Part shown: in pieces, positions 11,424-36,518 of the stretch
Layout of the letters: every line of letters starts with the position of its first letter
How positions within the stretch are numbered: the first letter of the stretch is position 1
Source: Tricharina praecox
Lineage: Eukaryota
Length of the DNA: 64,000 bases
Assembly (NCBI RefSeq): GCF_024521635.1
Contig: NW_026250416.1
Location: 744,001 to 808,000 of the forward strand
Direction of reading: 5' to 3'
Notes under the pieces: generated by a model
Databases searched by the model: none
What the model saw: only the letters and a program-made list of their open reading frames with translations
Told to the model about the DNA's origin: nothing
Translations under genes and position numbers: made by a program

Positions 11424-13066
11424 ACCTTTTGCTGGTGCAGGGGAAGTGGTTTCGGGTATGAAGCGGACAGCGCTTGCTGGTGCGAATGAGGATTCATTTT
11501 TCTTTCTTTTTCTGTTTGGTATACTCTTTCTCATAGCCACGGTTTTCCTTCTGCTCGAAGGTGTTTTACGTGGCCATGAGTTTTAAATTTTAATGAGGTA
11601 CCAAGGTTTTATGGGTCTTCGATACATGGGTTTTGCTTATGGGATTCCAAACGAAGGGAAGTGTTGTGGTTTAGACGTCCGGAAGCGGTTGATGACGGTC
11701 GCAGCATTACTGGCAGACAAAGTCTGAGCGTGCATCCTCATGATCTATGAGAGGGGCCCGAGATTCTGTAGATATAGAGAAGCTCTGGTCTGGAGAATTT
11801 GCGCAGTAATTGAACATTATAAACATTGAGATCCTTTTATCTGAAAGAATAGAATGGATCGTTTTTATTATACCTCGGGTTTGATCTACCTACCGCAAAC
11901 AATATTGACGGCTACAGAGCAATAAGCACGAGCAGGAGAGCATGAGATTTTAGATGCTAGTTCATGAGCTCGTGATCGTGCAGATGACTAACTCCATCTG
12001 TTAAAGTTTGACGTCCAGAGATGAAATGTGGCGATGATGACCTGTATAATCGAGGGACGTACCTGTTGTTGCCTGCCAAGCAAATGTCTCCGTTTAAACA
12101 CTGGCCGGCTTCTCGGCCAAGAGACTGGTTATGCGAGTTCTAGACTCCCTTCACGGGATGTCACCCTTTGGGGACGACGCAAGTGCATGACCTGTCACCC
12201 GTACAACTGCATGTGCTGTCACTCGCTCGCAGGCACAGCCTGTCGCTCGTGTTGCACACGGATAGCTGTATCGTGCGAGCAGAGTATATAGTCTCCGTCA
12301 GTAGCTAGCGAATACATGATCTTTCTCATCATTCACATTTCGTTCGGTTGACTTCGTCAACACAGCACGGGATCTACGACCGTCTAAGCCTCCGGGCTAC
12401 TTCGGGAAAATTAGGGTCTAGGCGCGATATGTGGGATCACTGTATTGACTTGGCAAGTTAGACTGATGCGCAGAGACATGGCCAAAGTTCGGGCGGTTGT
12501 GCTCTTGGCATTCGTTTTGCTGGCTACATCAACTGAAGGTTTATTTGAGTCGATCTGGGTTTCCAACTGTGACGGACACCCATAAGACGTTCTATGAAAA
12601 CGTCAAGAATGAGCTACCAGGTACTAGTTTTAGTTCGGGGAGCGAGCGGAAGTCTTAAATAGTGACGAGAGAGAGTGAGAGATGCTGAGTGAGAGAGTGC
12701 GACTGAAGAGAGAGAGGAAAGAACACGGGAGAAATGCGAGTGTTTATACTAAAAAAAATAGAGATGCACATATATTAGTATCTCAGTGAAGTTCCCGCGA
12801 CCATACATCAGTACTTGGTAGAATTCCTCCCGCGCGCCGTCCACATCACCTACATAACCCATATCACCCATATTACCCAACCAACAAAAGAAAGAAGAAA
12901 ACATAGGTGTGGTGACGATTATTTCAACACTAGGCACATTATATGCGCACCTGGAAACTTCCGTTGAGGAGATATCCCTGAAGAGATACGCGTCAATATT
13001 GTGACTCCTTTCTTGTACCTACTATTAGTAATCTGCTTCCAGAACGCAAAAAGAAAAAAACTGCAT

Positions 13067-16407: not shown

Positions 16408-19280
16408 TTTGAAGGGTAGGGCGCGCGTAGGGCTGAGTGTGAGTAGTAGGCCTTCCCGTAACGAGAGGCTGAAGGTGAGTCCAGTAGTGGTATCTTGCTA
16501 CGCTGAGTATTGGCCGACGCAAACCCCACTACTTTCAATTACTGTTCTGCTGCTTCTGCGCCTACCTCCCCGACTCAAGGTTGCTCATCTTCCCACTCGA
16601 AGCGACCACGAAGTGCATCGTCGGTCCAGCTCAGACGTTTGTCATTGGCGGGTGGCAGTTTGATTCCCGTGGCTTAGCTCCCCACCCGTGCTGTCCTGCG
16701 TCTTCTCCTATCCGGACCAGGCTCACTCCATGTCTCGGAAGCCGACGGCTGCGTAAGGCGGTTTTCTATCTAAGGGCGGATGGTGGGACGGCGACAATTT
16801 CATGGAATTCGCGAGCCGGAGACTTCGCAACCATACTGCAACTCCTCTTCCTTTTCCTCTGCTTGCTCGGTAACATCGTCTCCTTGCAACCGTGGCTCCT
16901 GTGTAGAAACTATGGTACAACCAGCAGCGGAGACATCTGCGGTGTTCGAGCGCTCTCTCTCGGCGGTAGGTGATTTTTATTCGGTGATTCCCCGAAACTT
17001 TGGACCGACTATCCTATTACTGTAGTCTCCCTCATAAACGTCACGGTTTGGTGTGCGTATCCATAACGCACCTGGCTCGATGCTCAGCAAGCTCAGGTAG
17101 CGGGCGGAACGGCGGGAACGAAAACGGCGATGGTTTAGTGTGTTGACACGATTTGTATGCAGTGATTATATTCAAAGATTTGCAGTACATCGCTTCCCAT
17201 TTTGCCGAACATGCAATTGACAGGCATATTCGAGCTGAAAAGTTAATTTACCAGCACTCCGCCTGCTTCAAAGGTGGACTAATGGATAATCGCCTGGAAA
17301 AATAGGCGATACAATACCGCAAGTAAACAAACGAACTTGCCGTCATGTATATGAGCGGGGCGAGTCTTGGTTCTTGTGTGGAGTATGCGATGCGTTCAAG
17401 AGAGCGAGAATCAGGATTAATCACTCGTTTCTACACGAGTGTCATGCGGTGAGTACCTGCTCGGCATCGTTTGTCTCCGGTGCTTTATAGTCGGATAACT
17501 AACCGTATGAAGGGCTATATCTTGCTTTTGATCGACTGTAGCACTGCTGTACAGAACGGAAAAAAGATCATGCCATCTCACTCATCGATACTTGACGAGC
17601 GATATCTTGTGATGCACATTCGGGAGCTGGATGGTTCGTTATTTACGTGGTGGGAAGGACTGAAAAGCGCATAAAATCAGTAATTGTTACTTATGGATTG
17701 CTATTTGTATTACTACAGGTTGCTCTTCCCCATAGACGTAGCCAGTTCAAGAGTATTGTTCTCATTGATTAGCTTGACTGGGGCGCACAGGAAGTGAGGA
17801 AACAAATTAACGAGCACGAGAGAAACAAAGAAAATCATAGCCACCGTTAGTTTATGAAGTCCCCCATCCAGCAGAGAAGAATTCCATTCAACATATTATG
17901 GGCATCACCTTTCGTGGCCCCGATTCCTTCTGACCGACTCTGCATCGTCTACCTGCTTTCCGCATATATCTTTACCTCTGTTAGAATATTCCCCCGAAAC
18001 CCATTGCCGTTTCTTCTTTTGAAATGGTAAAAAGAGACATTCTTTACTCGATTATTGCAACCCTCCACCTGTCGGGACGTTTCCCGTGCACATTTCTCCC
18101 CCACTGCGCCTCCGCAAAAATATAACGGACTACCCCCACCCTGCGCCGGACCCAAAGGCGTGTTGTTCTTGCAGTTTGTGCTAGCAGCGGGGCCGTTGAA
18201 CGTGGAGTTCAGGGAGACTTCGGCGATGAACCTTTTCATGGTACTTATCCCAGTGCCTCGCCAGTGGATCACTCTGAAGGACTTCACTGGTCGGCGGTTC
18301 CCGTTTCAAGTAGTAAGCCCATAGCGATCACCTCGAAGTGATCAAATGCAACCTACGCGCACCAGAGAGGAGATCCACGCGTAGAACTTCACTGTTTCTT
18401 AAACGTGCTGGCATGTCATTCGTACGCCGCCCGGGCTGCTAACGGACTCGGTGGTAGCTGACGGTCAGCGGCAGGCGTAGACGTACCGGCGGAATAATCC
18501 ATTAGTGGATTGTCGAAGTAGCTGGTATGTCGTGGGCGTGCTGATGCGAACAAGCTCGGAGGCGGTTTGCCACCGGGAATATTGACGTACTGGCGGAGCA
18601 GGGTTCGCGATGAATGTGAAGACATCGAGATGAGCGGTGGGGATTTTAGCGGTAGGGACGGGCTCGTGCGGGCGGCGGGATGCTGCAGGAGCTATTTGCG
18701 AGGCGAGGAGGGAAATCGGTCGAGGGCGTACTGTGACGCGGGTAATGGTTAGTAATCATGCTGCAGAATGAGTGTCGCTGTGGGGTGGGTCACGCGGAAG
18801 CAGCTCAGATCCGGTTGTCCCCGGATGCCGCCTTGCGAGCCTTCTTCTAGTCTGTATTCCGACCCGCCGCGGCGTTTCGTTCGTCGCTCGAAGTTTTATC
18901 GTTTCGTCGGTCATGCTGGCTTGGGGTACATTGAAGATGGGCGGGGAGTGAGTTGTCAGTGGTGGTAGACATGGTTCGACTTGGCTACATGCGACTGAAA
19001 TCGTCCACTGCAGTACAAGTACCTCAGGGAGGCTCTGGTTCAGAAAAACGCACATCACCACCACCGAGGAAAAGATTCATTCGGAAGGTAGGAAAGTTCT
19101 TGATATCATGGAGTACCTGAAACCATCGAGTTCCAAGCGGCAATTATTAACGCACGGTCATCATGAACTGCGCTTCTACTGTGAAATAAGGACTCAAGTT
19201 GAAAATAATGAAATTAACAGCGAGTAGTACTAGGTACATGGCCATTCTTCCCCATTCTGCAACCAACCACAAATTCGTCT

Positions 19281-19880
19281 TTATCTACCAAGCCCAGACG
19301 ACCTATCATTTTCCATCTTCGTGATCCACTTGTCCATGCATAGGTCGCACGCCGCTCTTGTATCCGACACAAACTTCAGGTGCAGTGGATTCATCTCTCC
19401 GCAGATGGCACACGGCGGGTAGCCCCTGATTTCTCCCCACCCCGGATGCTGTGTCGCTATTGAGGTCCGGATCGATCCGGACCTTGAAGCGGCTGGTACA
19501 GGTGGTGGAGGTCCTCTGGTACCAGGGCCAAAGCTACCTCTCTCGCGAAGCTCACGAGCATGCATCTCATGTTCCTCCGCCAATTCGGCAGAAAGTACGG
19601 CAATGCGGGCAGCTCGTGGGCCAGAATCCACAGCTATTATCTCCGCTTCGGACGGACTTGGGTGTGGTTCAAATGTCGCCGCGAGTTCTCGCTGGGTCTC
19701 TTCGCGGGCCTCTTCCCGGGCCACTGCAAGTATAGCCTTGAGCTTCTCCTCTTTTTTTTCGCGGGCGGCGATCATAGGGTGGAGTAAAGAGTGGATACGG
19801 GAACGACGAGTAGAAGTTTCGGAGGAACTGTCGCTTGGTGGTCGCAGAGACCGTGGAGTGCGCGGGGGGCTTCGAGGCAT
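19281..19880 (-). CDS. Hypothetical protein with coiled-coil and C-terminal CxxC...CxxC motif
   Basis: 199-aa ORF from ATG; CAIC-x17-CDLC near the C-terminus. Confidence 0.6.
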   Translation of the reverse strand: MPRSPPRTPRSLRPPSDSSSETSTRRSRIHSLLHPMIAAREKKEEKLKAILAVAREEAREETQRELAATFEPHPSPSEAEIIAVDSGPRAARIAVLSAELAEEHEMHARELRERGSFGPGTRGPPPPVPAASRSGSIRTSIATQHPGWGEIRGYPPCAICGEMNPLHLKFVSDTRAACDLCMDKWITKMENDRSSGLGR

Positions 19881-20777
19881 GATGGAGCTTCTCCGTCTCT
19901 GTTAGCCAAGAGGTGTGACGTAAGGAAGACTGATTGGGTGATTAATTCTAAAGTGTAAGCGGGAAAGAGACAGTGGCAGAGGTGCCACGGACGGCATATG
20001 AGGGCGAGCTTGAGTTTATATTGAGCGGAAACAGGAGGTTGCGTGCGGGTTCGAGATGATAAAGGTAACTATCCAAGTTGACTCGGTGTTAGTTGAGAAC
20101 AGTGAAACAGAAGTGTTTGGAATCAGCGGTTAACAAACAAACGTGGGTGCAGAGAGAGGGAGGGATCTCCGATGGTGAGTGATTGGAAAGTTACTACTCA
20201 CAATTTTGTCAGGAGATTAGAACCCAAGCGACGAGGAGTTTCAATAATTCGTAACGTGCGCAAACCCGAAGCAGCAACGTCCCTACATGTATAGTGTCCA
20301 TCCGTCTCAGGGACCCATGATCATCATAGCACCATGTCGAACATCGTAGCATCTACCAGAAATATCGCTTCTCACCCTCCGGTCTCATCGACATTCGGTG
20401 AACGGGAGGAGTCATGGATGAAGCGGTAGCCTGTGAGCCGAGTATTACTCGAATGTGCTGAATATAGGAATCGACCGGTCCAGCTAGAAGGATTGCGGGA
20501 GTGTGAAGGAAAAAAACTGTCAGGAGTGGAATACCCAAGGTCGCAGTAGTTATTGCTGAAGGGAATGGGTTCCAGAAGATATGCGAGTGTAAGTATCGTG
20601 ACAAAACGGGGGATAGGTGTGGCACGCAGCGTAGAAAAGACCACATCGATAGAAGGACGTCAAGGGGATGGGAAATATTGTGTTGATAAATGCTAAACGA
20701 TCTCGCCGTCAACCTTTCCGTCGTAGCGTCAATGCGCGCATTTCCCATCTGTTCCTTGAAGTTCCCGCCACCGCTCC

Positions 20778-21167
20778 TTATCCCCTCATGACGAATCCAT
20801 CGCCAACCCTTTCCTCAGACGCCACTGCCACCGGCACTCCACCACCACCACCACCACCAACAACAACACCGAACCTATCTCCAACACCGCAGAACGAGTT
20901 CAACCTCGGCCGAATCTTCTGCACCCGGCATGGAATCTCGGCGACGACGACGGCGAGCTCCTGCTTCTCCTTGATATCGCAGCAGGCCGGCGGCGGGGCT
21001 TGATGTTCGTGGAGGGGGAGGACGGTTTTCGCATTCGCTCTCTTGGCGCGGCTGCGGACGCGGAGGCGGATGCCGAGGATGATGGCGGCGACGATGATAG
21101 CAAATGGTCCACAGACGATATGGAAGAGAGGCATCTGTAGACATGTGTTCCAGGTTAGCGGAGGCAT
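20778..21167 (-). CDS. Small single-pass membrane protein (hypothetical)
   Basis: 129 aa; hydrophobic FHIVCGPFAIIVAAIILGI followed by basic RLRVRSRAKR. Confidence 0.55.
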   Translation of the reverse strand: MPPLTWNTCLQMPLFHIVCGPFAIIVAAIILGIRLRVRSRAKRANAKTVLPLHEHQAPPPACCDIKEKQELAVVVAEIPCRVQKIRPRLNSFCGVGDRFGVVVGGGGGGGVPVAVASEERVGDGFVMRG

Positions 21168-21865
21168 GGCGACGCAATGTCGACGACTTGATGAGGGAAA
21201 GTGGGTTGGAACGCACGATGTGTGTGTGCGCTGCTGAGATCGCCGGATTCAATACTGATACAGTGAGCTGGCGATGATGAAGGAAGTGTTCGGCTGAGTA
21301 AAAATCCACGGTAGACGACTGCGGGGTATGAGGTATGACCGTATGATGTCCGGGGTCTGAGGTACAGCTGTTGGACTAGCGGCAGATACGTTAGCTACTG
21401 CTGCATAGGAAATGATTCGGCCTGGCCGCGAACAAGCGCGCTTTCTTTGTGTAACCTGCGAAACCCACCTGGTTGAATTTTGAGCATGGCTGCACTCGTG
21501 ATTCCAACCGCACGTACAGAAGTTATACCGTTCAACTCTACTCAGGACCTACTGCGTGATCTCGGCGAATGACATGCTTCAAGGTGATCTCACGCAACCG
21601 GAGGTGTAACCGTGTAAGGTGATTGATAGGAGATCTTACGGTAGGAAAAAAGAATCATCTTGCTTCTGGAACCGGTAACTCGTTCATTGATTCCCGTCTC
21701 ATCGTCAGACCGTCAACAGGTCCATCGTTCGAATACACGTCTTTCCACCCATCATTAGGCAATCAAAACTCGACACGTAGTAACACCAGCTCACGTACAC
21801 TACACGCCTCTCATCACCGTGCTCAGGATCTCACAACTCTCCTCTTCACCAACCTCGGCGCCTGT

Positions 21866-24562
21866 TTAATCTTCCGCACTCTCCGCAATAGTCGGCATCA
21901 CCTCCACATTGAATGCCAAAGACCTCTCCTGAACGATAGCTGTCATCTGCATTAGTGCATCTCTCAATCTCCGCTGCCTAGCCTTTTTCTCCGATTCCTT
22001 CGCCTTGCCCCGCAGTGTATCGACGTACTCGTTCTGTTGCCGTACCATGTCCCCATAGAAGATCCTGAACTGACGCTGAATATTCCTCCTTAGACGGTCG
22101 CATGCGGCAGCAATTGGGCCGTCGTGAGCCAAGGGCGGTGTCCACCCAGATATAATCTCGAGGCCACCGGGGAGCTCGGAGATCAGGATTCTGCTCTGTT
22201 TGATGTTCATGTGGTATCGGAAGCCTTCACACGCCCAACACGAGGTGCTGGAGTATCCGATGGGACACCAGCGACGGATTGCGGGAATTCTCTCGTTGGC
22301 TAAGCCATCCAGCTCGGAGCGTCGGACGAGCTCGCAGATTAGTGTTACCTCGGCATGTTGCCAACAGCGGACTCTGGTGCGGTTTCCTCGTCTTGTTGGT
22401 GCCTCGATTGCGATCACGGGTTTGCCTCCGGGATTCAACCTGGGGGGATTGTAGAGTGCGGGGTCGTCGCCTAGGGTAAGGTCATCGAGGGTTATGCCGG
22501 GAAACGTGTTTAGGAGACCCTCAACGGTGAGACGGGTGCAGGTTTCATCGACTGTAGCCTTTTTTTCGAGGATGCTCATGACACTGGGAAACTTCACGAA
22601 GTTTGGAGGCGCAGGCGCCAGAATCTGCCATGCGTTAGTAGCGCTCAAGAATCGGAAAGTAGACTCCGCACCTCCGTTATTGTAAGTCGTGATGGAGGCC
22701 CCCGCGTAATCATTCTCATCATCCACTTAATCGCCTGAAAGTATCTCGACAGTTGGTAGATCCTAAGATTTATCTCTGTATCTTTTATCAAATAGCCAGT
22801 AAAATAGGAAAAGCACCAGCATTCCTGAAGGAAGAACTTCGGCACTGCATTCTCGTATGCTATCTCGTTGAGCCAGGCTATACAGCTCTCCTCCATAGTC
22901 ATGAAAGGTGCCGCTCGTTGTCTGGTCTAACCAATCCATCAGCAGCTATTAGTCGGGAACAGTGGTTAGGCTCACATATTCAATTAATCTCGACCGTAGC
23001 ATCAGCGATTGGTCTTCAGACAGCTTCAGCACGATCTGTTGTATCGAACTGAGTCGCCGTAACGCCCTTTTCAGATCTCGATACATGACGTGTATCCTCG
23101 GCTGACAGTTTTTGAGAACCAAGCTGAGCATATTCTCCCGTACCGTCTCCTCATTGTACCGATTCATACTCATGAGCTCCCCTGCCATATCATTATAATA
23201 TGCTTTCTCCTTATCGGTTGCAGGTCGGTCCTTGGCATAAACAACCTCTATAGCATACCCGCTCCGTTTGCCGGCTTCCACCGTCTTGCGATGTTCTTCG
23301 GCGGTACCCGGTAGAGTGAGGCTAATCCAAACAGCCGCTTCATCCTCGAAAGCATCGGTAACGAATAAGCTCGCAATGCGGTCGTACATACGCAGCTGTG
23401 AGTGGCGATTGCTGGTTTTACCCGCATCCGAGAAGCGACACAGCATTGCGAGGGCGTGAAGACACTCAGATCCCGTCACTTCGTGGTCATTCACTGCTAA
23501 TGGGGCCACCATTGAGGTTTGCGGCTCCTCGGATTCCGTAAACCGGACTGCTTTGGGCCTGGGCGAGGCCGCACGCGCTGCCTGTGGAACTCTCGTTTTA
23601 ACCCTCGTCAAAGGCGGGAAATCTTCCAATTCATCTAGCATCTCCCCACTTGCGTCACCGAGGGCATCCTTATCCGCTCCTGGATTGCTGATCGCCGCAC
23701 GCGGTTCCTGTGGAACTCTGGTTTTAACCCTCGTCAAAGGCGGGAAACCATCCAATTCATCTAGCATCTCCCCACTTGCGTCACGGAGGGGATCGTCATC
23801 CGCTCCTGGACTACTGACACTTGTGATCGGTGATAGAATGTCAGGATCCCCTGAGTTCTGCGAGGTGAGATCGCTATCCGAAAATCCCGATTCAAACTCC
23901 GGCGATGAGGGTCCAGCATACTCCACATGTTGTACCGATCCCTCCGGGCTGATGTCCGGGCTTTGCAGTGCGGCGTCTTCTCGGGTGGTGTTGGCGTCGT
24001 CAGACACTGGAGATAGTTCACTGACGTGAATCGTGCCTGGCGGTGTCCGGGGGGCCTCGGGCTCTCGGTCGGGAGCTTGGCCGTCATCGTCAGCCTCTGA
24101 GAGGACTTCAGTAACTTGAACTGTGACTGGCTGTGCCCCAGGAGGGAGGTCAGCGGCTCGCATCGTGACTGCCGGTGTCCGTGGGGTCTCGGGCTCTGGG
24201 CCCGCCTCGTGTGCCCACTCTCGACTGTCATCGTCAGACTCCGGGGACAGTTCGGTGACTTGGATCATGAATGGCGCTGGTAGTGGAGCTTCGGGCTCTT
24301 GGTCAAGCTCTTGACTGTCATCATTAGACTCTAGGGAGAGTTCGGTGACTTTGACAGTGACTGGCGGTGTCTGTGGGGTGTCGGGCTTTCGGTCGGGCTC
24401 AGAACTGTTATCTTCGGACTCTGAGGTGATTTCAGTGACTTCAACCGTGACTAGGCTTCTCCGTGCGGACTCGAGCTCTCGATCGCGATACCGGTAGTAC
24501 TTTCCACCGAAGCGTTCATGAAAGCCCTTCTGATGCTGTGATCTCGGAGGGGCGCGTGGCAT
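21866..24562 (-). CDS. OTT_1508-like nucleic acid/nucleotide deaminase (cytidine-deaminase fold), ~866 aa, 3 exons, acidic repeat N-terminus
   Basis: Exons 24562-22976, 22926-22672 and 22624-21866, joined by phase-0 introns (49 and 47 nt). Catalytic motifs HAE (WQHAEVTLI) and IGYSSTSCWAC. Confidence 0.75.
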
Positions 24563-25419
24563 AGTGAGGAGAAAAATAAGAGATAAACCGCGGCAAGATA
24601 ATGATGTAGTAAGATGCAGATAAATATGCGGTGCTGGCTGAGGTGACGATGTGGAGATGTGGAAATGGGAGCGAGCCAACCGACTGGGTACTGGGTGTAT
24701 GGGTGTATTGCATGGGTGTATGGTTACACTCGATCTATGTACGTACTTCTATGCGTGCCTCCTACCTTTCTTCCCTTCCATAGACAGCAAGAACGAAAGC
24801 GCGCTCCCTCACGTTTCTCACACGCCTCATCCGAAATGTTTGCTGCTGCATTCTGACACTTGGGGTTTTTCGAATAGCACGTGCACACGCCGTACTTGGT
24901 CTCACGGCAAAGAAGACTTGGCGGCAAGTCGTGGCGGCCGGATTATTCGAGAACATAATAGGATTGTATCCGTATGGCTATAATTCCCACCACGGTTGCA
25001 TAGGTTATGGACAAGATCATGTTGACCGGGTGGAAGGGATGCCTTATGCGAGTATCAGGAACAGGATGAACCTGTCGGGAGTGTTCCAAAACCGTGCTCT
25101 TTCCCGCTGAGAAGTTCATTGCCGCAATTCCGCCAGAACAATTGTGCAGATCAGGGCTACAGCCTACGGTAGTGGTCATGATGCTTTGCTCACCACCCAT
25201 CAATATCCCTCTCGCACACTGCTTACCGAAACATAGGAACATACACAATGCTACGATGATATGTGTCGCCTCGCCTCAACTGGTTCCTCCGTCAATAGCA
25301 ACTGTCAAACGACCGGTCTGCTCAACTTGAAGACGCACGGACAACCTATATGTTTCCATTTCATCCCCTGTATTCGATGCCGCATAATCCACAAGAAAGC
25401 TGTGCATACAGCTGAAACA

Positions 25420-26695
25420 ATGAGTGGACCAAGAAAGGCCAGCATACCTGTCGCGTCTGGGGGCAGGACACCCCCGCGAACTCCCGACCGCAAACCCCCA
25501 ATCCCTCGGACTCCAGCACGTACTGCCACGCCAACGCCAAAGAAGGATGACAAAGACAAGCCAGATGAGAAGGCGGGCCAGAAGGATGGCAAGAAGGTTG
25601 ATAAAAAGCAAACACCTACGCCCGCACAACTCGGTCAAGTCAAGAAGGTCACCCAAGCAATCCTACATCCAAATAAGGCACTTACGCATAAAATCGAGCG
25701 AGTTGTTGACGATAAACTGAAGAACCTGGCCGAGAACAAAGGCGAGGAAGGAGGGATACTGAGTCAACTGGTGCGAACCAAGATAACGCGTTGCGAGCTT
25801 TGCAATATTGTTTATTTTGTGGAACCGTCAATGTCTGGGGTATCGAAGAGCTATATCTACTGGTGCGATAAGTGCAGAGACCACCTCCGCCAACAGATTC
25901 GGGAGGGCGACGAGAGGACTCTACCTCCTCCACACGTGATGGTGGAGAGAGCGGGTCCCGGGATTGCTGCTAGGTTGGTAAATTCGGGGTTGTCGAAGTC
26001 GAAATCTTTTGGTATGTGTTCTTCCCATCCGAGGCGATTATATGCTGATTATACTAGACGATCTCAGTATGATAGCTGTGGATGTGGATGGGCGAAGGCC
26101 GCCTCCTACTCCCCTTCGCCCTTTCCTTAACCCTTACGGGTACCGTTTCAAACGTGTCATCATGATCGCCTCTCAAGTTGACGTATACGGAGCAAAGCGA
26201 GAAGTACTTACAACCGCTATCCCCGGTCTCCCGAAAATCTTCCCAGAGCAGTGGACCATCCCAAACGGCCCTAGTATCTTCAGCCTCCAGTTCGTTGCAC
26301 GTAAGATGTACGTGGTGGACGGAAAGTTTCACATGTTCGAGGAACGCACCCAGCGACTTGTGAACGTGTTCATGGTATTGTACGATATGCAGCCGACCAT
26401 GAGACAGATCAACGGGCTTTTTGGCTTTACGGATGTTCACGAAATCCTTCGGAATACCTTCATCTGGATCGCGATGCCTTCCCCGGATTACCGAACGGAT
26501 AGGATGGGGATCCAGGATGTGAAGAGGATGGTTGTAGCTTTCTGGGAGAATTCCATGGTTGTCGACTTTGCGTATCCACCGATCGGAAGCGAGTGGCCGT
26601 GGCCGGAATATTCGACGGATACGGAATTGCCTCCGCCAGAACAGAAGTGGGGGAGCGAGACGGCGCGGCCGCTGAGAATGAAAAAGATTCAATAG
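25420..26695 (+). CDS. Two-exon hypothetical protein: P/K-rich N-terminus, CxxC..CxxC ribbon, globular C-terminal domain
   Basis: ATG 25420; intron 26012-26057 (GTATGT..CTGAT..TAG) joins ORFs 25261..26130 and 26009..26695 in frame; CELC...WCDKC. Confidence 0.75.
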
Positions 26696-29600
26696 GGCGG
26701 GCAGGTACATCAGGTAACAGCCACATATGGGGATTCTGCCGAGTGTGAGATTGTGATGTTTTTTTTTTGTTACAGCGGATATGGGCGAGTAAGACAAAAA
26801 GAAGTAATGGCTTAGATATAAAAGAGAATGAAAATGAGCAGGCGACAGAGAGACTATTGAAAGAAAAACCAAATCCTGTCGAATTCATTCCCCCAAGGTC
26901 ATACTATGATATTTCTCCTCATGATATCAATTCTTCCGAGGTCATTCGTCAACTTCGCCTATGGATGCCCGAGACATTCACCCGCATTTCTTCACCGACA
27001 TGTTTCAGTGCGTGCAGTATTCTGAAGCAGGTGCCGTCAGGATAATAATCGACCGAAGTGACATCTCAATACAAACCGCACGGGGGATGCAGATAATTCT
27101 CCGTTTCCGACAGGTCGGGTATCCTCATGAGCTTATAACGGGAAATCCATTAACCAGTTATGTCTCCGCAAAATCCAAAACATCCGGCACTCCATATCAT
27201 TAGGTAAATAACATTTACGACCATGGAATCCCCTAATTTGTCTTCGCCTGCCACCCTTTCTCCATAAGAAGGCCTTCTACTAGCCGGACCCCCGCAGCGT
27301 TGGGGTGTGGTGAGCAATGCGCCGACGACTGCCCGATGAGTGGTATGTAGGAAGGTATACGGTGATGAAGGAGAGGTTTTGGCGGTGCTTTCGGCAGGAT
27401 CGGTTGCGTTGTTCGTGTCATCACCTGTACAAGAATGGTCAGCATTTAAATCGCAGCCGTACGCGAGTCTGCCAGTACCCCAAGCAAGCCGTCTCCGCCA
27501 TTATTCGTCGTGACAGTGCAGCGCTGATTAGATGATTGTGCCGGCACAGCACGCGAGAGAATTCGCCCGATGTTCTGCGAGCATGCGATGATACGAGGCG
27601 AGGGGCGGTGGCATAGGCGTACGGGTAGTGTGGAGATGCGTATGGCCCGCTGGTAGTTTCGGGTAGAAGGTTGTTGATTCGCGTGAATATCCTCACGACT
27701 GAGTGGCGGGGCATGTTTAGAACTTTGGATTTCTTCAGCCTTCGGGGTGTAGACGGTGGTGACACTGTACACAACTGGCGTTTAGATTCGCTTAATCAGT
27801 GTATGACTAAACATGCAAGGCTCTACGTCATTGCGTGAAGCTAAAAGCAACGAAACCTCCCACCGGAATCTGTATGGTTGCCAGTTGGGGGCTTCAAGCG
27901 ACACTTTTGAGAACCGATTTGCTTCCCGGCGGTTCTCAACCACAAAAACAGCTTCATTGGGGAGCCTGTCAGGCGGAAGTGGAGCAGCCCTCAAAGTTGG
28001 TCTCCCCAGTCCCCCCCAAAAAATATCGGTTGTGATTATGTAACTACAGCGCTCGGGTCGGCTGAGAGCTGAAAAGTGAGGATATGGGAGGGAGGGATGC
28101 AGCGCTGAGAGTTCAGCCTTTAGGTCAAATTATCCGACTTTTCTGGGCGATGGATTCTGTGGTAATTCAGGAAACGGGTCATCGCATCGCACTGCGTAAG
28201 TACCATTCTATTCCTCCGAACGCATACATTCTTCGTATCAAGGTGTTCCTGACTTAATACCATAGGTAGGTTACAGATTCGTGTCGTCGAGGTTCGAACT
28301 CCATCCCGTTTTCGACACCGTTTCATTCATCATTCGAGTTCCCTCCTCCAATTGTCCTTCTCTCACTGTAACATGGGAGCACGCCTTCAATGGTCACATC
28401 AGCACTGATTCTCCCTCCAATCGCAAACACTACTGCCAGGCTCCAGCCCCCAGCGGCGGGACGGCGATCGTATCTGCCGTTCAGGGCTAATCTCTACTAC
28501 AGGGCAGAGATATCGGATATCCGCCGATTCGAAGACCCCGACGATCACTGATACCTTCGAACTACCCTAGATACACCATCTACACCTGGAACTGCTGTGG
28601 CGCAGCTATAGCGGATCTATCGGCGGGAGTATCCGGATGTGGTCAGTAGCGGTGGGCATCAACGTTGGCGGGCATGGCGGGGTCGTCTTCTTCTTCTTGT
28701 CTCATGGTCATCATCTACAGAGCACTAGGTAGTCGACTAGCCACTATCCCCTCTTCTGCTTGAGTGTCATCCTGCTCTCGACCGGCCGCGGCGCCGCTTT
28801 CCGGCCTGGAGAGGCATTGGCGAAAGAGCCCTCGAAAAGCAGCCATTTCGGGACCGGCACGGCTAGAACCGGTGGCCACTGACTATTCCACTTGATTCCG
28901 TGGTTCGAGCTTGCAAGCTTTTCTCCAATTGCTGCAACCGTGTCCGGCTCTACGAGTACGATAACTAGTGAATATTCAAAACGATATATCCCCGGCGCGC
29001 CAGGGGTTGAGATATTGAGGTCTTTGGTGGGGTGTGGATTGCCCAGTGTTGTGAAAGTAGTTGTTACCGGTACTCAGATCCAGCGATAGTTAGCTGGTAA
29101 CAATGGTAGCGCTGGTTAAAACAGTTCAGTTCTGGCTGGTTTTGATGCGAGTTCAGTTCAGTGGGAAAACAGACGGTTTCAAGTTACAGCTGGGTTATGT
29201 AAGGAGATGCCAGTAAATCCGATGGGTGAGCCGCCAGCAGCCTGCGGGTGCATCCAAGGGGGTTTTGTGAGGATGAGGCGGGTCACGGCACTGTTGGATA
29301 GTCACGGAAGGAGTGATAGCGATAGTAGATGGGTACAGCAGTTTTAGAAAATAAGTACAGTAGTTATAACAGCAAACGTCTATCTAGAATGCCATAGTTC
29401 TCGACGCTGGCTGGTGACGGGTATATCAGCATCTATCCTTCAAGCACGGTCCATTCAAATTAACAGGAGACAGGAGAGATACTTACTGTGGCTGTCAGGA
29501 TCTCGACCCACACCATGTTGGTGCGACGTCGGTTGGTGGACCGGCTAGTGCGCTGCTGCTGGTACATTTCAAACAGAAACTTGAGAAAAACATGCTGTAG

Positions 29601-31630
29601 AAGTAGCAAGTGACCCCAGTACACCCGCAGGGGCCGGGTATGGGTGTCGAGTGGTGCGATGCGAGAAGCCGTCATGCGGTTCGCCGCCCATTCCTTCATC
29701 TCGGCCCAGCGGATCAGGGTCTTCGATGCATTCTGCGCGGCATTGTAGCGGAAATCGAAGTCAGCATTGTGGGCGGCGGGAAGCGAAAGATGCTCCTTCT
29801 CGAGAATCTAACGCTGCTCTTCCCATTCTGTTGGCGTATTAGCGTTGTTTGTTCATGATGTATGAGGTGGTCCGGGGGGAGCTTACTGGCTTTCAACATC
29901 TTGACCTCGTCATTGCAGGCTTGAACCTGCCATTGTGCCAAATATCAATCAAGGCCCTAGTGATGGACCAAACTTCGTCGCTATCAGCCAGCCTGAAATG
30001 CTAATTAGTGTGGACAAGAGTAGCGGGAGAGGGTGACACACAGTGAATTAGGTATTGTTTGTTGAGCTATTAAGATGTTCGTTGGAAGATTGTAATGTTG
30101 ATGGTGGTAAGGTGTGGGGAGAAGGGGAGGGAAGGGAGGTGCTTTTATAGGTCGAGCAGCGCCAGATTTGGCCGACAACCTTGGCACACAAACTATCGTC
30201 AAATTGTGCTAGCGGCTTTTGAATTTTGCCGGCGAAACTTCATAAACAATTGTCCTCCAGGTAAATACTGTGGAACGCAGCTGCAACTGACGTCTTGGAG
30301 GCACTTTTCGACCCTTGGCTGCGGACCTTGGGAGGATTTGTTGCCAAGATGTTGGGACCGGCTGTCGTACCTGAGGCTGCAGGGGGGCCTGTTTCTGTTT
30401 TGATCGTCGATTCTGTTTTATTTTGATCGCTCGTGTTCTTCTTGACGGTTGTAAGACAATCCGGCAGCGGCTAACCATAGCCACTACCGTCAATTAGTCA
30501 CTCATAATGAATGTCGCGAGGTGTTATTGAAACTCAGAGCGACACCAACACCAGCGACTAAATGTGGGCTAGTGCCCTGGAAACGGGTCACTGGCGAAAG
30601 CTGGTTCGCCCAGGCTGCCAGGCGTCAGCTCCACTGAGCCGCCTGACTTAGCGGGTCGACCACAATGAGGTCCATTGCTCTCGGTGACCGCTACGACCCC
30701 GGCAGTCTCGAGAGAGGCCTCGTCCGCGTCTTCGTCGTCATCGTTGACGGCGGCGCGCGAGGCGCTGCCCTGGCGGCTTTTCCGCGACTTGATCCCGTGT
30801 TAGTGTACGTCATCAGTCAGAAGCCATTGTGATCCGTCTGCCCACAGTGTCAGCAGTGGAGGAAAGGGAAGCCAGTCGAAAATTATGTCTTGGCTTTGGC
30901 TGCACCGCTCGTCTGCAAAGAGGTCCGGGATTTTGAAGCAGTCTTTGAAGCGAAGCGGTCTTTGCCCCTCCTTGTCTGCTTCCTGAATCCGGACTTCTGC
31001 CCACCCATACCTAGTGTCTTTCGCCGACGTTTCCGTTCAGGGAATTAGCTGAAGAGGTGTGAGAATTCCCGGGTCGGAGTTTTGTACCGCCGTAGCGGCA
31101 CCAGGGCGGCATTCGATAAAGCCCGAATATAGTAACTGGAGCTCGGTGGGTCAATTTGTACGGACGACGCCGGTATGGACATTGATAGTTTCGACCAGGA
31201 ACCCACACCCCATAACCGATCAGAAAGGTAGATACTACGGCGCGTTTGTCGCAATTACGCTTTATTGATTTTGCCTGGTTCCACCTTCTTTTTAGCGTCC
31301 TCCGACGGGATTAACTGGTCGAGTAAACAGCTGCATTGTAAAGTAACAGGCAAAAGCTGTTGTCTAGTGGCCATTTCTCTCCCAAAAAGCAAAAATTCAA
31401 GAAACGTAAATCTGGCATCCACCTGGCCGAAAACAAAAACAGTATCCCTCTCAAAGAAGCCTCATAGTACGTAAAGCGAGTTTTCAAATGTCATCACATC
31501 AACGGTTCGTCCAGTGGCCCAATGTCTGACTGGTGTCTCTTCGATCGAGTAATGATGCGCTGCACGTGGTTTCCATTAGGCAGGGGACAACGATGGAAGA
31601 AGGATCGTGGATGCACTTACCGCTGTTCGC

Positions 31631-32889: not shown

Positions 32890-33585
32890 TGTCAACCATC
32901 CGGACTATAGTCCACTAGTGGACTGTAGTCCCGTTCCGTCCGGGGCAGGCTTTTGCTATGTAGATGGCCTCCAGGCTCGCCCTGGAGGCGGGCTGCTCGT
33001 AGACACTATCACGCTCAGGGCACCAAACATGACGTGGACGCCGAAGCTCCGGTCACCAGTCGTCCGGCACCAAATATGACTCGGAAGCCTGTGTGCCGCG
33101 TCACCATCGCAGACCGGGTCATGAACGATCACTCGCTATGGCGAGACACTTCCGTTATCCGTTCTCACACGGAGGTGACGAGCGGTGGCGTGAGGCCTCT
33201 ATCCGCCGCATCCCCGAGCCTTCCTGTATATATACCTTTCTTTCTGCCGTGTCTGGTACTCAATACACTATCTTGCGATACCACTTTTCTGGACAGGCTA
33301 TGAGCCCGGGTCAGCGCTTACAAAAACTACATTAAAAAATCTATTTATCTATCGTCCTCGTCCAGAATCCACGGCCAGAACCCTCGTTCAATAATTAGAA
33401 TCCACTCACTGAACACAATGTCCAATTCCACCTCCAACTATAACTTGAAGTACTACTCCTCAAGCTTCAGAAACGTTGAGAAGCTTGTAAGATCGCTCAA
33501 CTACAACACATGGAAGAGCTATATCCTGCTTGTGCTTGAAGGCATATAGGCCGATGGAATTATCAACCGCACCGAAATTTACCCC
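32890..33585 (+). mobile_element. Ty1/Copia 5' remnant: LTR 32890-33295, PBS, gag N-terminus
   Basis: TGTCAACC...GGACA LTR with TATATA (~33225). PBS GGCTATGAGCCCGG at 33296. From ATG 33418: ..EKLVRSLNYNTWKSYILLVLEGI*ADGIINRTE (Copia gag N-terminal motif). Confidence 0.8.
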
Positions 33586-34636
33586 TGAAATCGCCCCGCA
33601 CCCTCGAAGTTATTGACGGACGTCCCATCGAGTCAGGCGACATCACACATGTTACCACCACCACCCTGTCCATACAGAAACAGCATCAAGAAATTTCTAT
33701 GTTTGTCACCAAAGTAGGCCACTACCCCGTTGTACTGGGAATCCCCTGGATGGACCTCCACGATGGGGCCATCCGGTTCAGCTCCCGGACGCTAACCTTC
33801 GGCTCGCAATACTATAGGGCTAACAGCAATGAGTTGCGCATAGAATCACCACCGACCCGCCCTGCCTATCAACCTATGCTCTCACGTCAAAAGCAGCTGT
33901 GGAGGAGCCAAGGGTAAGCGCGGGGGGCGCCAACATTGTGGCCCACTGCATTACGTTGCCCCCAAGGAAGAATAACCCAGAATGGGCTAACCTTGCAAGG
34001 GAAAGCACTGTCATCATCTGCGCCCTACAGATGGACTCATTCCAAGAACTAGCCAACAAGGAGAGCCTTACGATTTGCAACAGCACGCTTGCCGAGGTCA
34101 ACATTGCGCTAGAAGGAAAGAAGGACCCCACGGCACATATCCCTCAGGAATACCACAAGTTCCTAGCACTGTTCTCTGAAGCCCTTGCCAACAACCTGTC
34201 CCCGCACCGGCACTACGACCATAATATTACACTGAAGTAGAGGTTTATGCCCCCATATGGACCATTGTACTCACTATCGAAAACGCAGCTCATTGCACTG
34301 AAAGAATGGCTGGAAAACAACCTCAGCAAAGGTTTCATCCATGCCTCTTCCTCTCCAGCAGCATTGCCAATTCTGTTTGTCAGGAAACACTGGACAGCTC
34401 CCTACGCCGGTGTGCGTATTACAGGGGCCTGAATGAAGAAACCATCAAGAACAGGTACCCACCCCCACTCCTCCAAGAAACCCTGATGCGGCTATCCCGG
34501 GCGAAATACTTCACCACCCTGGATCTCTGCGGCAGCTACAACCTGGTACGTATGGCGGAAGGAGAACAGTGGAAAACAGCGTTCTGGAGACGCTATGGCC
34601 TGTTCGAATCTCTCGTCATGACATCTATGCTCATAC
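33580..34636 (+). mobile_element. Older degenerate Gypsy copy B, 5' part (protease to RT, internal deletion to integrase)
   Basis: Homologous to 37980-39028 with stops and frameshifts; the last ~15 bp match integrase sequence at 40681-40695. Confidence 0.85.
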
Positions 34637-35920
34637 TGTCACGGCTCGCGACGGAATGACGAAGGGAGGGTCAGCACAAGGATCGGGAGAGTTGGGGGGC
34701 AGTGCAGAGGCAGTGCACCGGCAGTGCAAGTATGAGCCGCAGAGGATTGGGGGCTGTGTGCAGGGAGCAGGGATAGCGCAGTAATGAGCCGCAGGGGATT
34801 GGGGCTGTGTGCAGGAAGCAGGGGTGGTGCGGCTGCGCAGCGTATGAGTCACGGAAGCGGGGGTACTGGCAAGGTGGATTTCTCAGGGCCTGGCACACGC
34901 CCACGGTCATTGTCAGGTTGCGGGAACAAGTGGAGGATTTCCTATATAAACGGGCCGTTGCCTCTCTGAATTTCGTTCTTCACGCAACAACTTGTTAATT
35001 CAATCACTGTTACCTCTGTCCTTGCCTCGGCTGCCGTCTGCGCCGTAGTCCTTGTCCCTGCCTCTGTTCTCAGTTGCCGTCTGCACTGAGCCCTGCCTTA
35101 CCTTGTCCTCTGAACCCGTCTTGCCTCTGCCGAAGGCAGAACCCGATCCCCAGCCCGGCTTCGCTACCTGGAGCCTTGCCCGACCGTGCCGTTACACTTT
35201 GTTGCGTCCCATATCTCTCCACCTAGCGTACTACCACGGCCACCAACACTCAGGTACCCGACGTCCCCCAGCAGGACGAAGTACCAGTGGCACCCCCCTT
35301 CTACCGAGAAATTCGCGCCGCCATCTACGAACAACTCAATATCATCGTCAATCATGATGCACCCGCCGATGATGCAACCCTGATGGGGTTGTAGAACGAA
35401 TTCAGAATCCTCGCCCGCGCAATCACCCTGTCCCCAATAGCCATACTCACCTGGCGATTCGACGACCTCGAAGAACAACTTGCTGACGGCCGCCGCATCG
35501 CCAACCGCCTCGCCACCGTCGAAACCCAACCTAAAACCCGCGCTGAGCGTGTCCCAGAGCCAGCCATGTTCGACGATACACGCGAGAAACTGGAAGGGCT
35601 CGTGGCGCAACTTTGACCCAAGCTGTACAGCGGCCCAGCCCGTTTCCCAACTCCAGCACTCCGAATGGCGTATGCCTTCAACCGCTTGGAAGGCCGCGCC
35701 CAAGCCCAGATCCTGCCGTACATCGAAAATCACAACATCACCCTCACCGACGCTGATGCGATTATCACACTCCTGAACAACGCATTTGGTGACCCTGACC
35801 CAGCGGCCACCGCTCGAGCCAAGCTACACCACCTGAAACAAGGCAATAAGGAGTTCACCTCCTACTTTGCGAAATTCCAGATGCTTGTCTCCAAGCTCAA
35901 TTGGGACAAGCATGCGAAAC
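34637..35920 (+). mobile_element. Gypsy copy A: LTR (34637-35196) plus truncated gag
   Basis: TGTCACGG...CCGTTACA 560-bp LTR; gag homologous to 36519-37203, start mutated to ACG, one in-frame TAG, cut at HAK. Confidence 0.92.
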
Positions 35921-36518
35921 TGTCACGGCTCACGACGGAATGACGAAGGGAGGGTCGGCACAAGGATCGGGAGAATTGGGGGGCAGTGCAGAGGCAGTGC
36001 ACCGGCAGTGCAAGGATGAGTCGCAGAGGATTTGGGGCTGTGTGCAGGGAGCAGGGATAGCGCAGTAATGAGTCGCAGGATATTGGGGCTGTGTGCAGGA
36101 AGCAGGGGTAGTGCGGCTGCGCAGGGTGTGAGTCACGGAAGTGGGGTACTGGCAAGGTGGATTACTCAGGGTCTGGCACACGCCCACGGTCATTGTCAGG
36201 TTGCGGGAAGAAGTGGAGGATTTTCTATATAAACGGGCCGTTGCCCCTCTGTATTTAGTTCTTCACGCAACAACTTGTTAATTCAATCACTGTTACCTCT
36301 GTCCTTGCCTCGGCTGCCGTCTGCGCCGTAGTCCTTGTCCCTGCCTCTGTTCTCAGTTGCCGTCTGCACTGAGCCCTGCCTCACCTTGTCTCCTGTACCC
36401 GTCTTGCCTCTACCGAACCCAGAACCCGATCCCCAGCCCGGCTTCGCTACCTGGAGCCTTGCCCGACCGTGCCGTTACACTTTGTTGCGTCCCCCATCTC
36501 TCCACCTAGCGAACTACC

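Follow-up and report, generated by a model that had tools for sequence, protein, structure and literature searches.

Gene structure and genomic context

The Tricharina praecox locus comprises three minus-strand open reading frames (22949..24748, 22645..22926 and 21866..22726 in the ORF listing), the first of which encodes 537 aa counted from the ATG at 24562. Joined over two introns (Table 1), they give a coding sequence of 2601 nt with 0 internal stops, encoding 866 aa plus a stop codon. The product matches KAI5850779.1 / XP_051338993.1 in 100% of its letters ('hypothetical protein BZA05DRAFT_445609 [Tricharina praecox]'). The first-pass annotation had proposed that the three frames form one protein of about 866 aa, and its boundaries are exact: 24562 is the ATG and 21866 the final base of the stop. 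The identity with the NCBI record and the coinciding introns of an orthologue bear the proposal out. The gene had also been called hidden. Because the joined protein equals an existing NCBI record, XP_051338993.1, it is annotated instead. The locus is a real, intact, annotated three-exon gene of a cup fungus (Pezizomycetes, Pyronemataceae).

Table 1. Features of the T. praecox gene. Positions refer to the window, amino acids to the 866-aa product.
Feature	Position	Strand	Basis or detail
Exon 1, aa 1-529	22976..24562	-	ATG at 24562; matches NCBI protein
Intron 1, 49 nt, phase 0	22927..22975	-	GTGAGC..TAG, CTAAC branch box
Exon 2, aa 530-614, 85 codons	22672..22926	-	Joined CDS; 85 codons in orthologue too
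Intron 2, 47 nt, phase 0	22625..22671	-	GTGCGG..CAG, TACTAAC at 22638
Exon 3, aa 615-866 + stop TAA (21868-21866)	21866..22624	-	Joined CDS
Acidic tract rich in Pro and Ser, predicted disordered, aa 31-340, net charge -42	23543..24472	-	Composition; charge-hydropathy on the disordered side
Five VTELSxESDD-type repeats, aa 42-189, period ~30 aa	23996..24439	-	Motif scan
Duplicated 42-aa block, core DASGEMLDEL..PPLTRVKTRVPQ, aa 261 and 303	23568..23817	-	Tandem Repeats Finder, 126 nt x 2.0, 91%
Middle domain, predicted to fold, aa 355-614, interrupted by intron 1	22672..23500	-	Probably like the domain at the N-terminus of fungal OTT_1508 proteins
Predicted deaminase core in the PF14441 match, aa 704-778	22133..22357	-	H704-A-E706, C743/C746, W775-T-P-P778
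Charged helical C-terminal tail, aa 811-866, basic ARxRR and PTIxE	21869..22036	-	Both motifs common to orthologue

From 33.5 kb onward, the window (the whole 64-kb stretch of DNA analysed) contains Ty3 and copia elements. The transposon-derived repeat closest to the gene begins at 33580, a distance of 9 kb from the ATG, and the earlier description of the gene as lying near a retroelement nest does not hold. The accompanying remark that such proximity may be incidental fits the data: the gene lies inside a four-gene block that is collinear with an orthologous contig. Because of this conserved syntenic block, a specific link between the gene and the transposable elements is not drawn. The neighbouring genes bear CxxC..CxxC motifs of an unassigned family. 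The two genes with such motifs were considered as paralogues of each other and this was rejected, the similarity being not significant. A paralogue of the deaminase gene was not found within the window.

Orthologue and sequence conservation

Among 1.84 billion representatives, one true relative was found, the orthologue P0002 on metagenome contig L001. The full-length T. praecox protein does not itself show up in the candidate-based homologue searches, since an 88-aa fragment stands for its 90% cluster. A two-sequence profile search scored 8000 candidates and returned P0002 as its 1 match. Searches at longer lengths (2805 candidates, none scored) and with aa 335-537 (2100 candidates) gave no homologue. 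Two of the four phmmer matches, P0003 and P0004, were rejected as repeat-driven; they are internally repetitive, and their matches are broken up into 5 and 8 short segments.

Both introns keep their position and phase in the orthologue, where they measure 48 nt (intron 1) and 44 nt (intron 2), each with GTGAGT..CAG ends. RNA evidence for the gene was not found; three soil metatranscriptome runs of a single study gave 0 contigs. The two proteins are 42-48% identical over aa 239-866, and the middle domain 42-44%. The gene pair shows a dN of 0.45-0.53 and a dS of 1.1-1.4; the dN of neighbour gene A is lower, 0.25-0.40. Invariant in both orthologues are the H, A and E of the first motif, both cysteines, and the W..P of the loop that links strand 4 to helix 4. 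Intron positions, collinearity and the aligned sequences suggest a vertically inherited gene.

Motifs and family assignment

Members of the cytidine-deaminase-like superfamily are marked by an [H/C/D]xE motif and, about 25-40 residues further on, a (P)CxxC motif. Both had been reported as intact at first pass, and they are: HAE is found at aa 704, IGYSSTSCWAC at aa 736. The spacing from HAE to CxxC amounts to 39 residues (H704-A-E706, C743-W-A-C746), and all four residues of HxE and CxxC are invariant in the orthologue.

The T. praecox protein and the orthologue alike match a single Pfam family, OTT_1508_deam (PF14441). The scores are 21.8 bits for ORF3 (E 1.9e-4), 19.7 bits for the full T. 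praecox protein (E 8.4e-4) and 23.1 bits for P0002 (E 7.2e-5), all below the curated gathering cut-off of 27 bits. The alignment covers profile positions 2-63 of 64, from HAE through the WxxP loop, and in it HAE and CxxC coincide with the motifs of the family. A signature of the OTT_1508 clade is GxxK right before CxxC (Iyer et al., 2011, Table 1, PMC3239186). Here the stretch reads G737-Y-S-S740; the glycine is retained and the lysine is replaced by serine, and the orthologue has GYSS too. The aromatic-x-x-P element is present as W775-T-P-P778, with W-L-G-P in the orthologue and W and P invariant.

For the C-terminal part, PF14441 clusters make up 29 of the 30 feature neighbours in the ESM Atlas, with a score of 0.93 and 201 of 256 shared features (guide value 170, which is exceeded); shuffled proteins reach scores of 0.9 in 4-10% of cases and all-ten agreement in one third. 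The first structural neighbour of this C-terminal part is a 91% PF14441 cluster with a TM score of 0.45, which is <0.5. For the middle domain, which matches no Pfam model, the best structural neighbour is an ascomycete cluster of 515 aa, 96% PF14441, with a TM score of 0.61 across 209 aa. This value holds by the query and drops to 0.35 by the 515-aa target, and both sides are predicted models. Fungal OTT_1508 members carry an 'N-terminal alpha+beta domain' (Iyer et al., 2011, PMC3239186), and the structural match of the middle domain would fit it.

Other resources gave no assignment. Searches of the PDB returned 0 matches by sequence at E<=5 and 0 by profile at E<=10, and NCBIfam and PADLOC returned 0 at E<=1. 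An hhalign comparison with a 16-sequence TadA-like profile placed HAE and CxxC in register at P = 0.1, which is not significant; one more comparison with TadA-like sequences gave P 0.12, likewise not significant. The first-pass placement in the OTT_1508 family, and the profile comparison suggested for it, come out divided. PF14441 is the single family matched, the Atlas neighbours agree and the zinc residues are invariant; the bit scores stay under 27 and the GxxK lysine is a serine. On these comparisons, the protein is most likely a fungal OTT_1508-type zinc deaminase, and a very divergent one.

Predicted structure

The superfamily fold is a three-layer alpha/beta/alpha arrangement in which each motif sits at the N-terminus of a helix and the two surround a single zinc. 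AlphaFold2 models of the full-length protein (866 aa, alignment of 4 rows, mean pLDDT 34.9) and of exon 3 (2 rows, mean pLDDT 37.2) are too low in confidence to count. In the full-length model, helix 704-719 opens at HAE and C743 lies just before helix 744-751. The exon-3 model has a helix at 87-105, whose start lies three residues ahead of H90, and another at 130-138, directly preceded by the first cysteine (residue 129). The C-terminal tail is helical in both of these low-confidence models. Its invariant columns, in exon 3 numbering, are A215, R216, R218, R219, P244, T245, I246 and E248. The deaminase part is mildly basic, with a net charge of +5 across 252 aa.

The acidic N-terminal tract

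Five VTELSxESDD-type motifs, at aa 42, 72, 102, 150 and 180, and a DASGEMLDEL block duplicated at aa 261 and 303 agree with what had been read from this region at first pass. Tandem Repeats Finder reports the VTELS region as 90 nt x 2.5 copies with 75% matches (24224-24452). The two copies of the 42-aa block differ by 3 changed codons in the 25-codon core and by 10 in the 17 flank codons. The core is present as a single copy in the orthologue, and the VTELS array was not found there. The N-terminus of the orthologue is shorter and likewise acidic, net -13 across 150 aa. Elsewhere in the window there are further ORFs that are long, disordered and rich in repeats, and they point to a general propensity of coding repeats to expand.

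Several functional readings of the tract were considered. CK2 sites in the acidic repeats were rejected, since the 9 occurrences of [ST]xx[DE] compare with a mean of 12.2 in shuffled sequences, and 1826 of 2000 shuffles have at least 9. [ST]P sites are mildly enriched, with 13 against 7.6 expected (reached by 44 of 2000 shuffles). A home-made regular expression for SUMO-interacting motifs has 4 matches; as a lead, and going by the consensus of such motifs and by PMC12751080, the VTELS repeats may resemble them. A predicted complex of aa 345-866 with aa 250-344, the stretch of the duplicated block, scored 0.00 with the partner at pLDDT <50 and counts neither way.

The acidic tract would have arisen by lineage-specific tandem duplications around one short conserved linear motif. 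Most likely it forms a disordered appendage that can expand and that carries docking or regulatory motifs, and it probably stands outside the catalytic mechanism.

Relation to known deaminases

With the fungal OTT_1508-like deaminases (Iyer et al., 2011, PMC3239186), the T. praecox protein shares HxE...CxxC, the aromatic-x-x-P after strand 4, a filamentous-fungus host and extreme sequence divergence. It differs from them in its sub-cut-off score, in the serine at the GxxK lysine, in the 310-aa acidic repeat tract in front, and in having one detectable relative in 1.84 billion representatives. A literature search found nothing on the T. praecox gene or on Pezizomycete OTT_1508 members.

The nearest studied relatives are the OLD deaminases of Neurospora. 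The OTT_1508-like OLD-1 and OLD-2 are A-to-I mRNA editors, according to a commentary (PMC12754623), and the earlier statement that substrates of the clade are largely uncharacterised is outdated in this respect. What they edit is the mRNA of neighbouring C2H2 'zao' genes (work of Honda, Yokoyama and Suzuki, 2025, as presented in the commentaries PMC12754623 and PMC13327615). In these commentaries, the OLD-ZAO module is defined by an adjacent C2H2 factor gene, an in-frame UAG that is corrected, and virus-induced A-to-I editing. The occurrences listed in one of them (PMC12754623) belong to Eurotiomycetes, to Sordariomycetes and to a single basidiomycete, and Pezizomycetes are not on that list. 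The likeness of the T. praecox protein to OLD-1/OLD-2 is one of family and description.

Unlike the Neurospora crassa genes, the T. praecox gene has neither an adjacent C2H2 gene nor an in-frame TAG in its neighbours. A six-frame pattern scan of the 64 kb gave 2 isolated C2H2 matches (1924 and 41165), none within 16 kb. No Pfam finger domain occurs in 76 of the 93 ORFs of at least 70 aa between 16.5 and 31.5 kb, the other 17 lying on the gene itself; five weak Pfam matches in these neighbour ORFs (E 0.02-0.04) are all far below the cut-offs. Neighbour A (25420-26695, two exons) and gene C (19284-19880) are free of internal stops, in-frame TAG included, in both species.

The OTT_1508 clade falls in the same Helix-4 division as TadA/ADAT2 (Iyer et al., PMC3239186). 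HAE and (P/S)CxxC align in register with these tRNA adenosine deaminases, but only at the P = 0.1 given above. The T. praecox protein is much larger, with extra domains. A housekeeping role as a tRNA enzyme is not assigned to it, because just two known sequences make up the family.

Orientia OTT_1508 and the bacterial polymorphic-toxin deaminases belong to the Pfam family that is the best match here, and a common origin of bacterial toxin and fungal members is presumed (Iyer et al., 2011, PMC3239186). The T. praecox gene differs from the toxins in having spliceosomal introns and synteny with another fungal contig, and in lacking both a domain for secretion or delivery and an immunity gene. The comparison is made without a bacterial member, as 0 of 404 bacterial genomes (3 + 401, one counted twice) gave a PF14441 match. 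The six-frame profile search covered 401 of them at E<=1e-4 and another search 3 at E<=0.01, in which 2 of 14 controls gave matches, none above the cut-off. A tblastn search against plasmids returned 3 matches at E 1-10, which were rejected; the overlap with 'tadA_2' is spurious, lying on the opposite strand.

Proposed function and alternatives

The gene is probably an intact, inherited one for a divergent OTT_1508-type zinc deaminase with a middle domain, an acidic tract and a tail, likely acting as an A-to-I RNA editor. The protein would consist of four parts: a disordered acidic region (aa 31-340), a folded domain (355-614), the deaminase (615-810) and a charged helical tail (811-866). H704, C743 and C746 would hold a zinc-bound water, and E706 would serve as proton shuttle for the hydrolytic deamination of a base in nucleic acid. 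By analogy, the substrate is most likely adenosine in RNA rather than cytosine in DNA. The proposal follows OLD-1 and OLD-2, since these only studied fungal relatives edit A-to-I. The enzyme would work without an adjacent C2H2 'zao' target gene.

Iyer et al. (2011, PMC3239186) instead predicted cytosine deamination for the OTT_1508 clade. The protein could then deaminate cytosine in DNA (or RNA) and so mutate selfish elements or hypervariable genes in a RIP-like or APOBEC-like manner. The same authors group the clade with AID/APOBEC by its extended strand-4/helix-4 loop, suggest that such clades 'might all deaminate cytosine', and for the fungal proteins put forward mutagenesis of selfish-element DNA (PMC3239186). 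The aromatic-x-x-P of this loop is present, and the window contains Ty3 and copia elements. The only fungal members studied experimentally nevertheless edit adenosine in mRNA (PMC12754623). The transposable elements lie at least 9 kb away from a gene in a conserved syntenic block, and a chromatin-type domain was not found in the 866-aa protein by Pfam scan. A cytosine mutator appears unlikely. The editor reading is compatible with another proposal, which concerns the N-terminus alone: the first-pass annotation had suggested that the acidic tract mimics nucleic acid and inhibits the enzyme. The strong negative charge, the acidic N-terminus of the orthologue and a conserved block core that could dock on the folded part would suit such a role. 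Since the orthologue lacks the VTELSxESDD array, this array is not a conserved part of the mechanism, other ORFs of the window are similarly repeat-rich and disordered, and the deaminase part is just slightly basic. Autoinhibition by mimicry is unsupported and seems rather improbable.

Doubts about catalysis lead to two further readings. The protein might be a weak or dead deaminase-like binder or regulator, with the repeat N-terminus as its functional part, e.g. in multivalent docking. Both orthologues have lost the GxxK lysine, the PF14441 scores fall under the family cut-off, dN is fairly high beside that of neighbour gene A, and the short motif in the disordered tract is both conserved and duplicated. 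However, the four zinc-site and catalytic residues are invariant despite about 55% divergence, which would be unexpected in a dead enzyme, and the fungal clade as a whole diverges extremely yet retains its motifs (PMC3239186). We regard an inactive protein as quite improbable. It is more doubtful still that the protein is not a deaminase at all, with HAE and CxxC occurring by chance or in another zinc fold and the Pfam and Atlas signals being spurious. Sub-threshold Pfam matches, the rates at which shuffled proteins attain Atlas scores of 0.9 and all-ten agreement, the empty PDB searches, the hhalign P value and the low model confidence would allow for it. Against this reading, two orthologues match one and the same family, and the shared Atlas features exceed the guide value. 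Two separate domains have best structural neighbours that bear PF14441. The motifs stand in register in the Pfam match and in the TadA-like hhalign comparison, lie at or near helix starts in both low-confidence models, and are spaced by 39 residues.

Significance

The gene is a candidate nucleic-acid editor and opens no new category of system. A function has been assigned to fungal OTT_1508-like deaminases recently, in the antiviral editing of zao mRNA in Neurospora, and most of this fast-evolving expansion is unstudied. The two-domain core appears to persist here in an early-diverging ascomycete lineage, in a form so divergent that the annotation reads hypothetical. The T. praecox gene is distinctive in the lack of a zao neighbour, the loss of the GxxK lysine and a lineage-specific acidic repeat extension.

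A-to-I mRNA editing arose independently in Pezizomycetes, e.g. in Pyronema confluens, and its machinery is given as unresolved in the same accounts (PMC11087585, PMC5381528). It would be a long shot to see in the gene a Pyronemataceae-restricted, stand-alone OLD-type RNA editor with no zao partner, controlled from its N-terminus by five repeats of a hydrophobic strand plus acidic residues, similar to SUMO-interacting motifs, and by a docking motif that is conserved and duplicated. If true, such an editor could contribute to Pezizomycete A-to-I mRNA editing. The gene is a reasonable test case for a role of the OLD-type core apart from a zao gene, for the requirement of the GxxK lysine, and for the regulation of editors by disordered appendages.

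Gene structure and family assignment

The candidate deaminase gene is composed of three ORFs, which occupy two frames between 24562 and 21866 on the minus strand in the ORF listing. Removal of two short introns brings them into a single frame, and the joined CDS of 2601 nt encodes 866 amino acids. Intron 2 carries a perfect TACTAAC box at 22638. The translation is identical in every letter to the protein P0005, deposited as KAI5850779.1 / XP_051338993.1 ('hypothetical protein BZA05DRAFT_445609') from Tricharina praecox (Pezizomycetes, Pyronemataceae). The three-exon model of the first-pass annotation was exactly right. Its description of the gene as hidden was mistaken, because the NCBI protein equals the joined CDS: the gene is already annotated in public databases, with no function assigned.

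Coordinates of features in the window and on the metagenome contig L001
Feature	Sequence	Position	Strand	Description
Deaminase intron 1	window	donor 22975, acceptor end 22927	-	GTGAGC..TAG, 49 nt, phase 0, CTAAC box
Deaminase intron 2	window	donor 22671, acceptor end 22625	-	GTGCGG..CAG, 47 nt, phase 0
Gene A	window	25420-26695	+	head to head with deaminase gene; two exons, ~409 aa
Short ORF	window	20856-21155	-	hydrophobic, membrane-like stretch; syntenic with L001; no Pfam family
Gene C	window	19284-19880	-	~199 aa, ends in CxxC-x17-CxxC; syntenic with L001
Retroelement nest	window	33580-48262		begins with Ty3 fragments at 33580
Older Ty3 fragment	window	33580-34620
LTR-like repeats	window	34634-35159, 35918-36442, 41550-42074		94-96% identical
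Ty3-type gag, RT, RNase H, integrase ORFs	window	36510-42818
Copia-type fragments	window	45862-48262	-
Deaminase exon 1	L001	2511-3539		343 aa
Deaminase exon 2	L001	3588-3842		85 aa, equal in length to T. praecox exon 2
Deaminase exon 3	L001	3887-4771		295 aa; total protein 723 aa

The motifs of the predicted zinc site, HAE (aa 704) and IGYSSTSCWAC (aa 736, with cysteines 743 and 746), were found as the first-pass annotation had claimed (HAE, IGxSxxxCxxC), together with the VTELS repeats and the duplicated DASGEMLDEL block. OTT_1508_deam (PF14441) was the only Pfam family detected. It matched the third ORF (E 1.9e-4, 21.8 bits; aa 704-778 on profile positions 2 to 63/64), the whole protein (E 8.4e-4, 19.7 bits) and the orthologue P0002 (E 7.2e-5, 23.1 bits), all three scores falling short of the 27 bits set as curated cut-off. 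As a rough control for a promiscuous model, the profile was run in six frames on 401 bacterial genomes and gave 0 matches at E ≤ 1e-4. The ESM Atlas contains the exact protein sequence. For aa 615-866, PF14441 clusters formed 29 of the 30 feature neighbours (best 0.93, 201/256 features), and the first structural neighbour was 91% PF14441 (TM 0.45). The first structural neighbour of aa 355-614 was a 515-aa ascomycete cluster, 96% PF14441, with TM 0.61 over 209 residues. Passages of Iyer et al. (2011; PMC3239186) describe a distinct alpha+beta domain preceding the deaminase domain in fungal OTT_1508 members, which this neighbour matches. The core of P0005 is probably the usual two-domain unit of the family.

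The T. praecox protein carries the signature of the clade, as listed in Table 1 of the same paper, only in part. The aromatic-x-x-P element is present (WTPP, aa 775-778) and invariant in both orthologues, whereas the lysine of GxxK is replaced by serine in both. Sequence and profile searches of the PDB gave no match, nor did searches of NCBIfam and PADLOC. An hhalign comparison with a 16-sequence TadA-like profile placed HAE on HAE and SCxxC on PCxxC, yet only at P = 0.1. The earlier assignment to the OTT_1508-like deaminases is supported in part by the sole Pfam family and the agreeing ESM Atlas neighbours, while the scores below 27 bits and the serine in place of the GxxK lysine speak against it.

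AlphaFold2 models reached a mean pLDDT of 34.9 and pTM of 0.21 for the full length (4-row alignment), and of 37.2 and 0.22 for exon 3 (2-row alignment), values too low to count as evidence. Both low-confidence models place HAE at a helix start or one residue after it, and a helix directly after C743 (full-length) or the first cysteine (exon 3). Strands before, between and after the motifs occur in the low-confidence full-length model only; its order of elements is that expected for a deaminase, which at pLDDT 34.9 has no evidential weight.

Orthologue and genomic neighbourhood

When the 286-aa third ORF was searched by HMMER against 1.84 billion representatives, four matches at E ≤ 0.001 emerged. 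One is an 88-aa fragment of the T. praecox protein itself, and two are internally repetitive proteins with many short matched stretches, which were discounted. The fourth is a true relative, P0002 (280 aa, 45% identity), encoded on L001 (43,990 nt). Word-indexed searches added no further relative. In tblastn against L001, P0005 matched with aa 295-623 (41%, E 1e-68) and aa 608-814 (46%, E 9e-49), and the frame changes coincide exactly with the intron sites of the window. The L001 introns, 48 and 44 nt, each read GTGAGT..CAG. These shared positions are comparative support for splicing of both predicted introns, and at that level speak against unspliced introns, one of the refuting conditions set in the first-pass annotation. 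The C-terminal PTIxE-containing segment is duplicated in the L001 orthologue. Nei-Gojobori comparison of exons 1-3 gave dN 0.45-0.53 and dS 1.1-1.4 (near saturation), against dN 0.25-0.40 for gene A and 0.40 for gene C. On these rates the deaminase gene is under purifying selection and changes somewhat faster than gene A.

Four blocks of the window (26631-25593, 23482-22025, 21155-20782 and 19917-19302) are collinear with L001, and the deaminase gene therefore lies in an inherited syntenic block. Gene A has an intron (26012-26057, GTATGT..TAG) at the same position in L001 and a conserved CxxC-x20-CxxC; its C-terminal domain shares 66% identity with that of the L001 counterpart, and no Pfam family or PDB match was found. 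Gene C has no Pfam family. Both share a conserved CxxC..CxxC motif, with no significant similarity between them. Because synteny spans four genes, adjacency to genes A and C does not specifically point to a functional pairing. The shared divergent promoter contains a short conserved non-coding stretch (window ~24804-24845, L001 ~2091-2174), some 250 bp before the deaminase ATG, which is a candidate for a common regulatory element. None of 76 ORFs scanned with Pfam in 16500-31500 had a match at E<0.02, so that this part of the window looks like an orphan-rich region.

The retroelement ORFs come from a domain scan of 19 of the 30 window ORFs of 200 aa or more. The nest lies at least 9 kb from the deaminase gene, with other genes between. 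Nearness of the retroelements is read as incidental, as had been allowed, given this distance and the gene's own syntenic block; the description 'near' a nest did not hold. At 62736-62809 (+), ARAGORN reported a tRNA-Asn (anticodon ATT) with A, not U, at position 33. No tRNA reached the Rfam gathering score there, and the fold did not stand out from those of shuffled sequences (z -0.33); the stretch is probably a degenerate sequence resembling a tRNA.

The acidic tract

Residues 1-30 are basic. They are followed by an acidic tract (aa 31-340; 33 D and 33 E, net charge -42) with many P and S. In a charge-hydropathy plot this tract falls on the disordered side, and aa 345-614 and 615-810 on the folded side. 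Five VTELSxESDD-type motifs (aa 42, 72, 102, 150, 180) correspond to 90-nt DNA units with 75% matches. A 126-nt tandem duplication (23568-23817, 91% identity) gave two copies of a 42-aa block. Between the copies, 3 codons have changed in the 25-codon core (DASGEMLDEL..PPLTRVKTRVPQ) and 10 in the 17 flanking codons. The orthologue has a shorter, likewise acidic N-terminus (net -13 over 150 aa) with no VTELS repeats and a single block core. This core, kept in the orthologue and between both copies, is the sole tract element with signs of constraint.

The most fitting reading of the tract is a disordered extension, specific to the lineage and enlarged by in-frame tandem duplication. Autoinhibition by nucleic-acid mimicry, as earlier proposed, is possible but unsupported. 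An array of CK2 sites was rejected on a shuffle test. The VTELS repeats resemble SUMO-interacting motifs (a hydrophobic strand, then acidic and serine residues), a lead only, backed by passages of reviews. Two further repeat-built frames lacking a Pfam family occur on the plus strand: 1048 aa at 5716-8862, in whose imperfect repeats H, P, Q, R, E and G abound, and a proline-rich 859 aa at 54194-56773 with repeated PPRPPP-type units. To judge from these two, disordered ORFs built from repeats are frequent in the region.

Putative function

The first-pass statement on OTT_1508 substrates, that most are uncharacterised, has been superseded. According to a commentary (PMC12754623) and passages of PMC13327615, the OTT_1508-like deaminases OLD-1 and OLD-2 of Neurospora crassa edit the mRNAs of adjacent 'zao' genes, changing UAG to UIG, with a preference for hairpin loops and for U at -1. 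The 'zao' products are zinc-finger transcription factors, and the editing belongs to an antiviral response. In a passage of PMC11169179, the Fusarium homologue CHE1 (310 aa) has three C-terminal C2H2 fingers beyond the edited stop.

The T. praecox gene stands outside the OLD-ZAO module as defined in those passages, having neither a nearby C2H2 gene nor internal stops in its neighbours. A six-frame C2H2 pattern scan of the 64 kb found two isolated matches only, 0 within 16 kb of the gene. No finger domain was detected by Pfam in the 76 flanking ORFs, and genes A and C have no internal stop in either species. A gene on L001 at 11002-12120 (+), located 6 kb downstream from the deaminase orthologue, encodes three C2H2 fingers near its N-terminus; the window yielded no counterpart of it. 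This gene has no internal stop and is not zao-like.

P0005 is, on balance, probably a nucleic-acid deaminase that depends on zinc and belongs to the fungal OTT_1508 type. By analogy with OLD-1 and OLD-2, adenosine in RNA is tentatively favoured as substrate over cytosine, and the T. praecox protein may work as an OLD enzyme does. Cytosine in DNA or RNA, the main alternative following passages of Iyer et al. (PMC3239186), seems unlikely. The first-pass observation is confirmed and its interpretation supported in part. The gene, on record as a hypothetical protein, represents a variant of a known family, very divergent and of narrow distribution.
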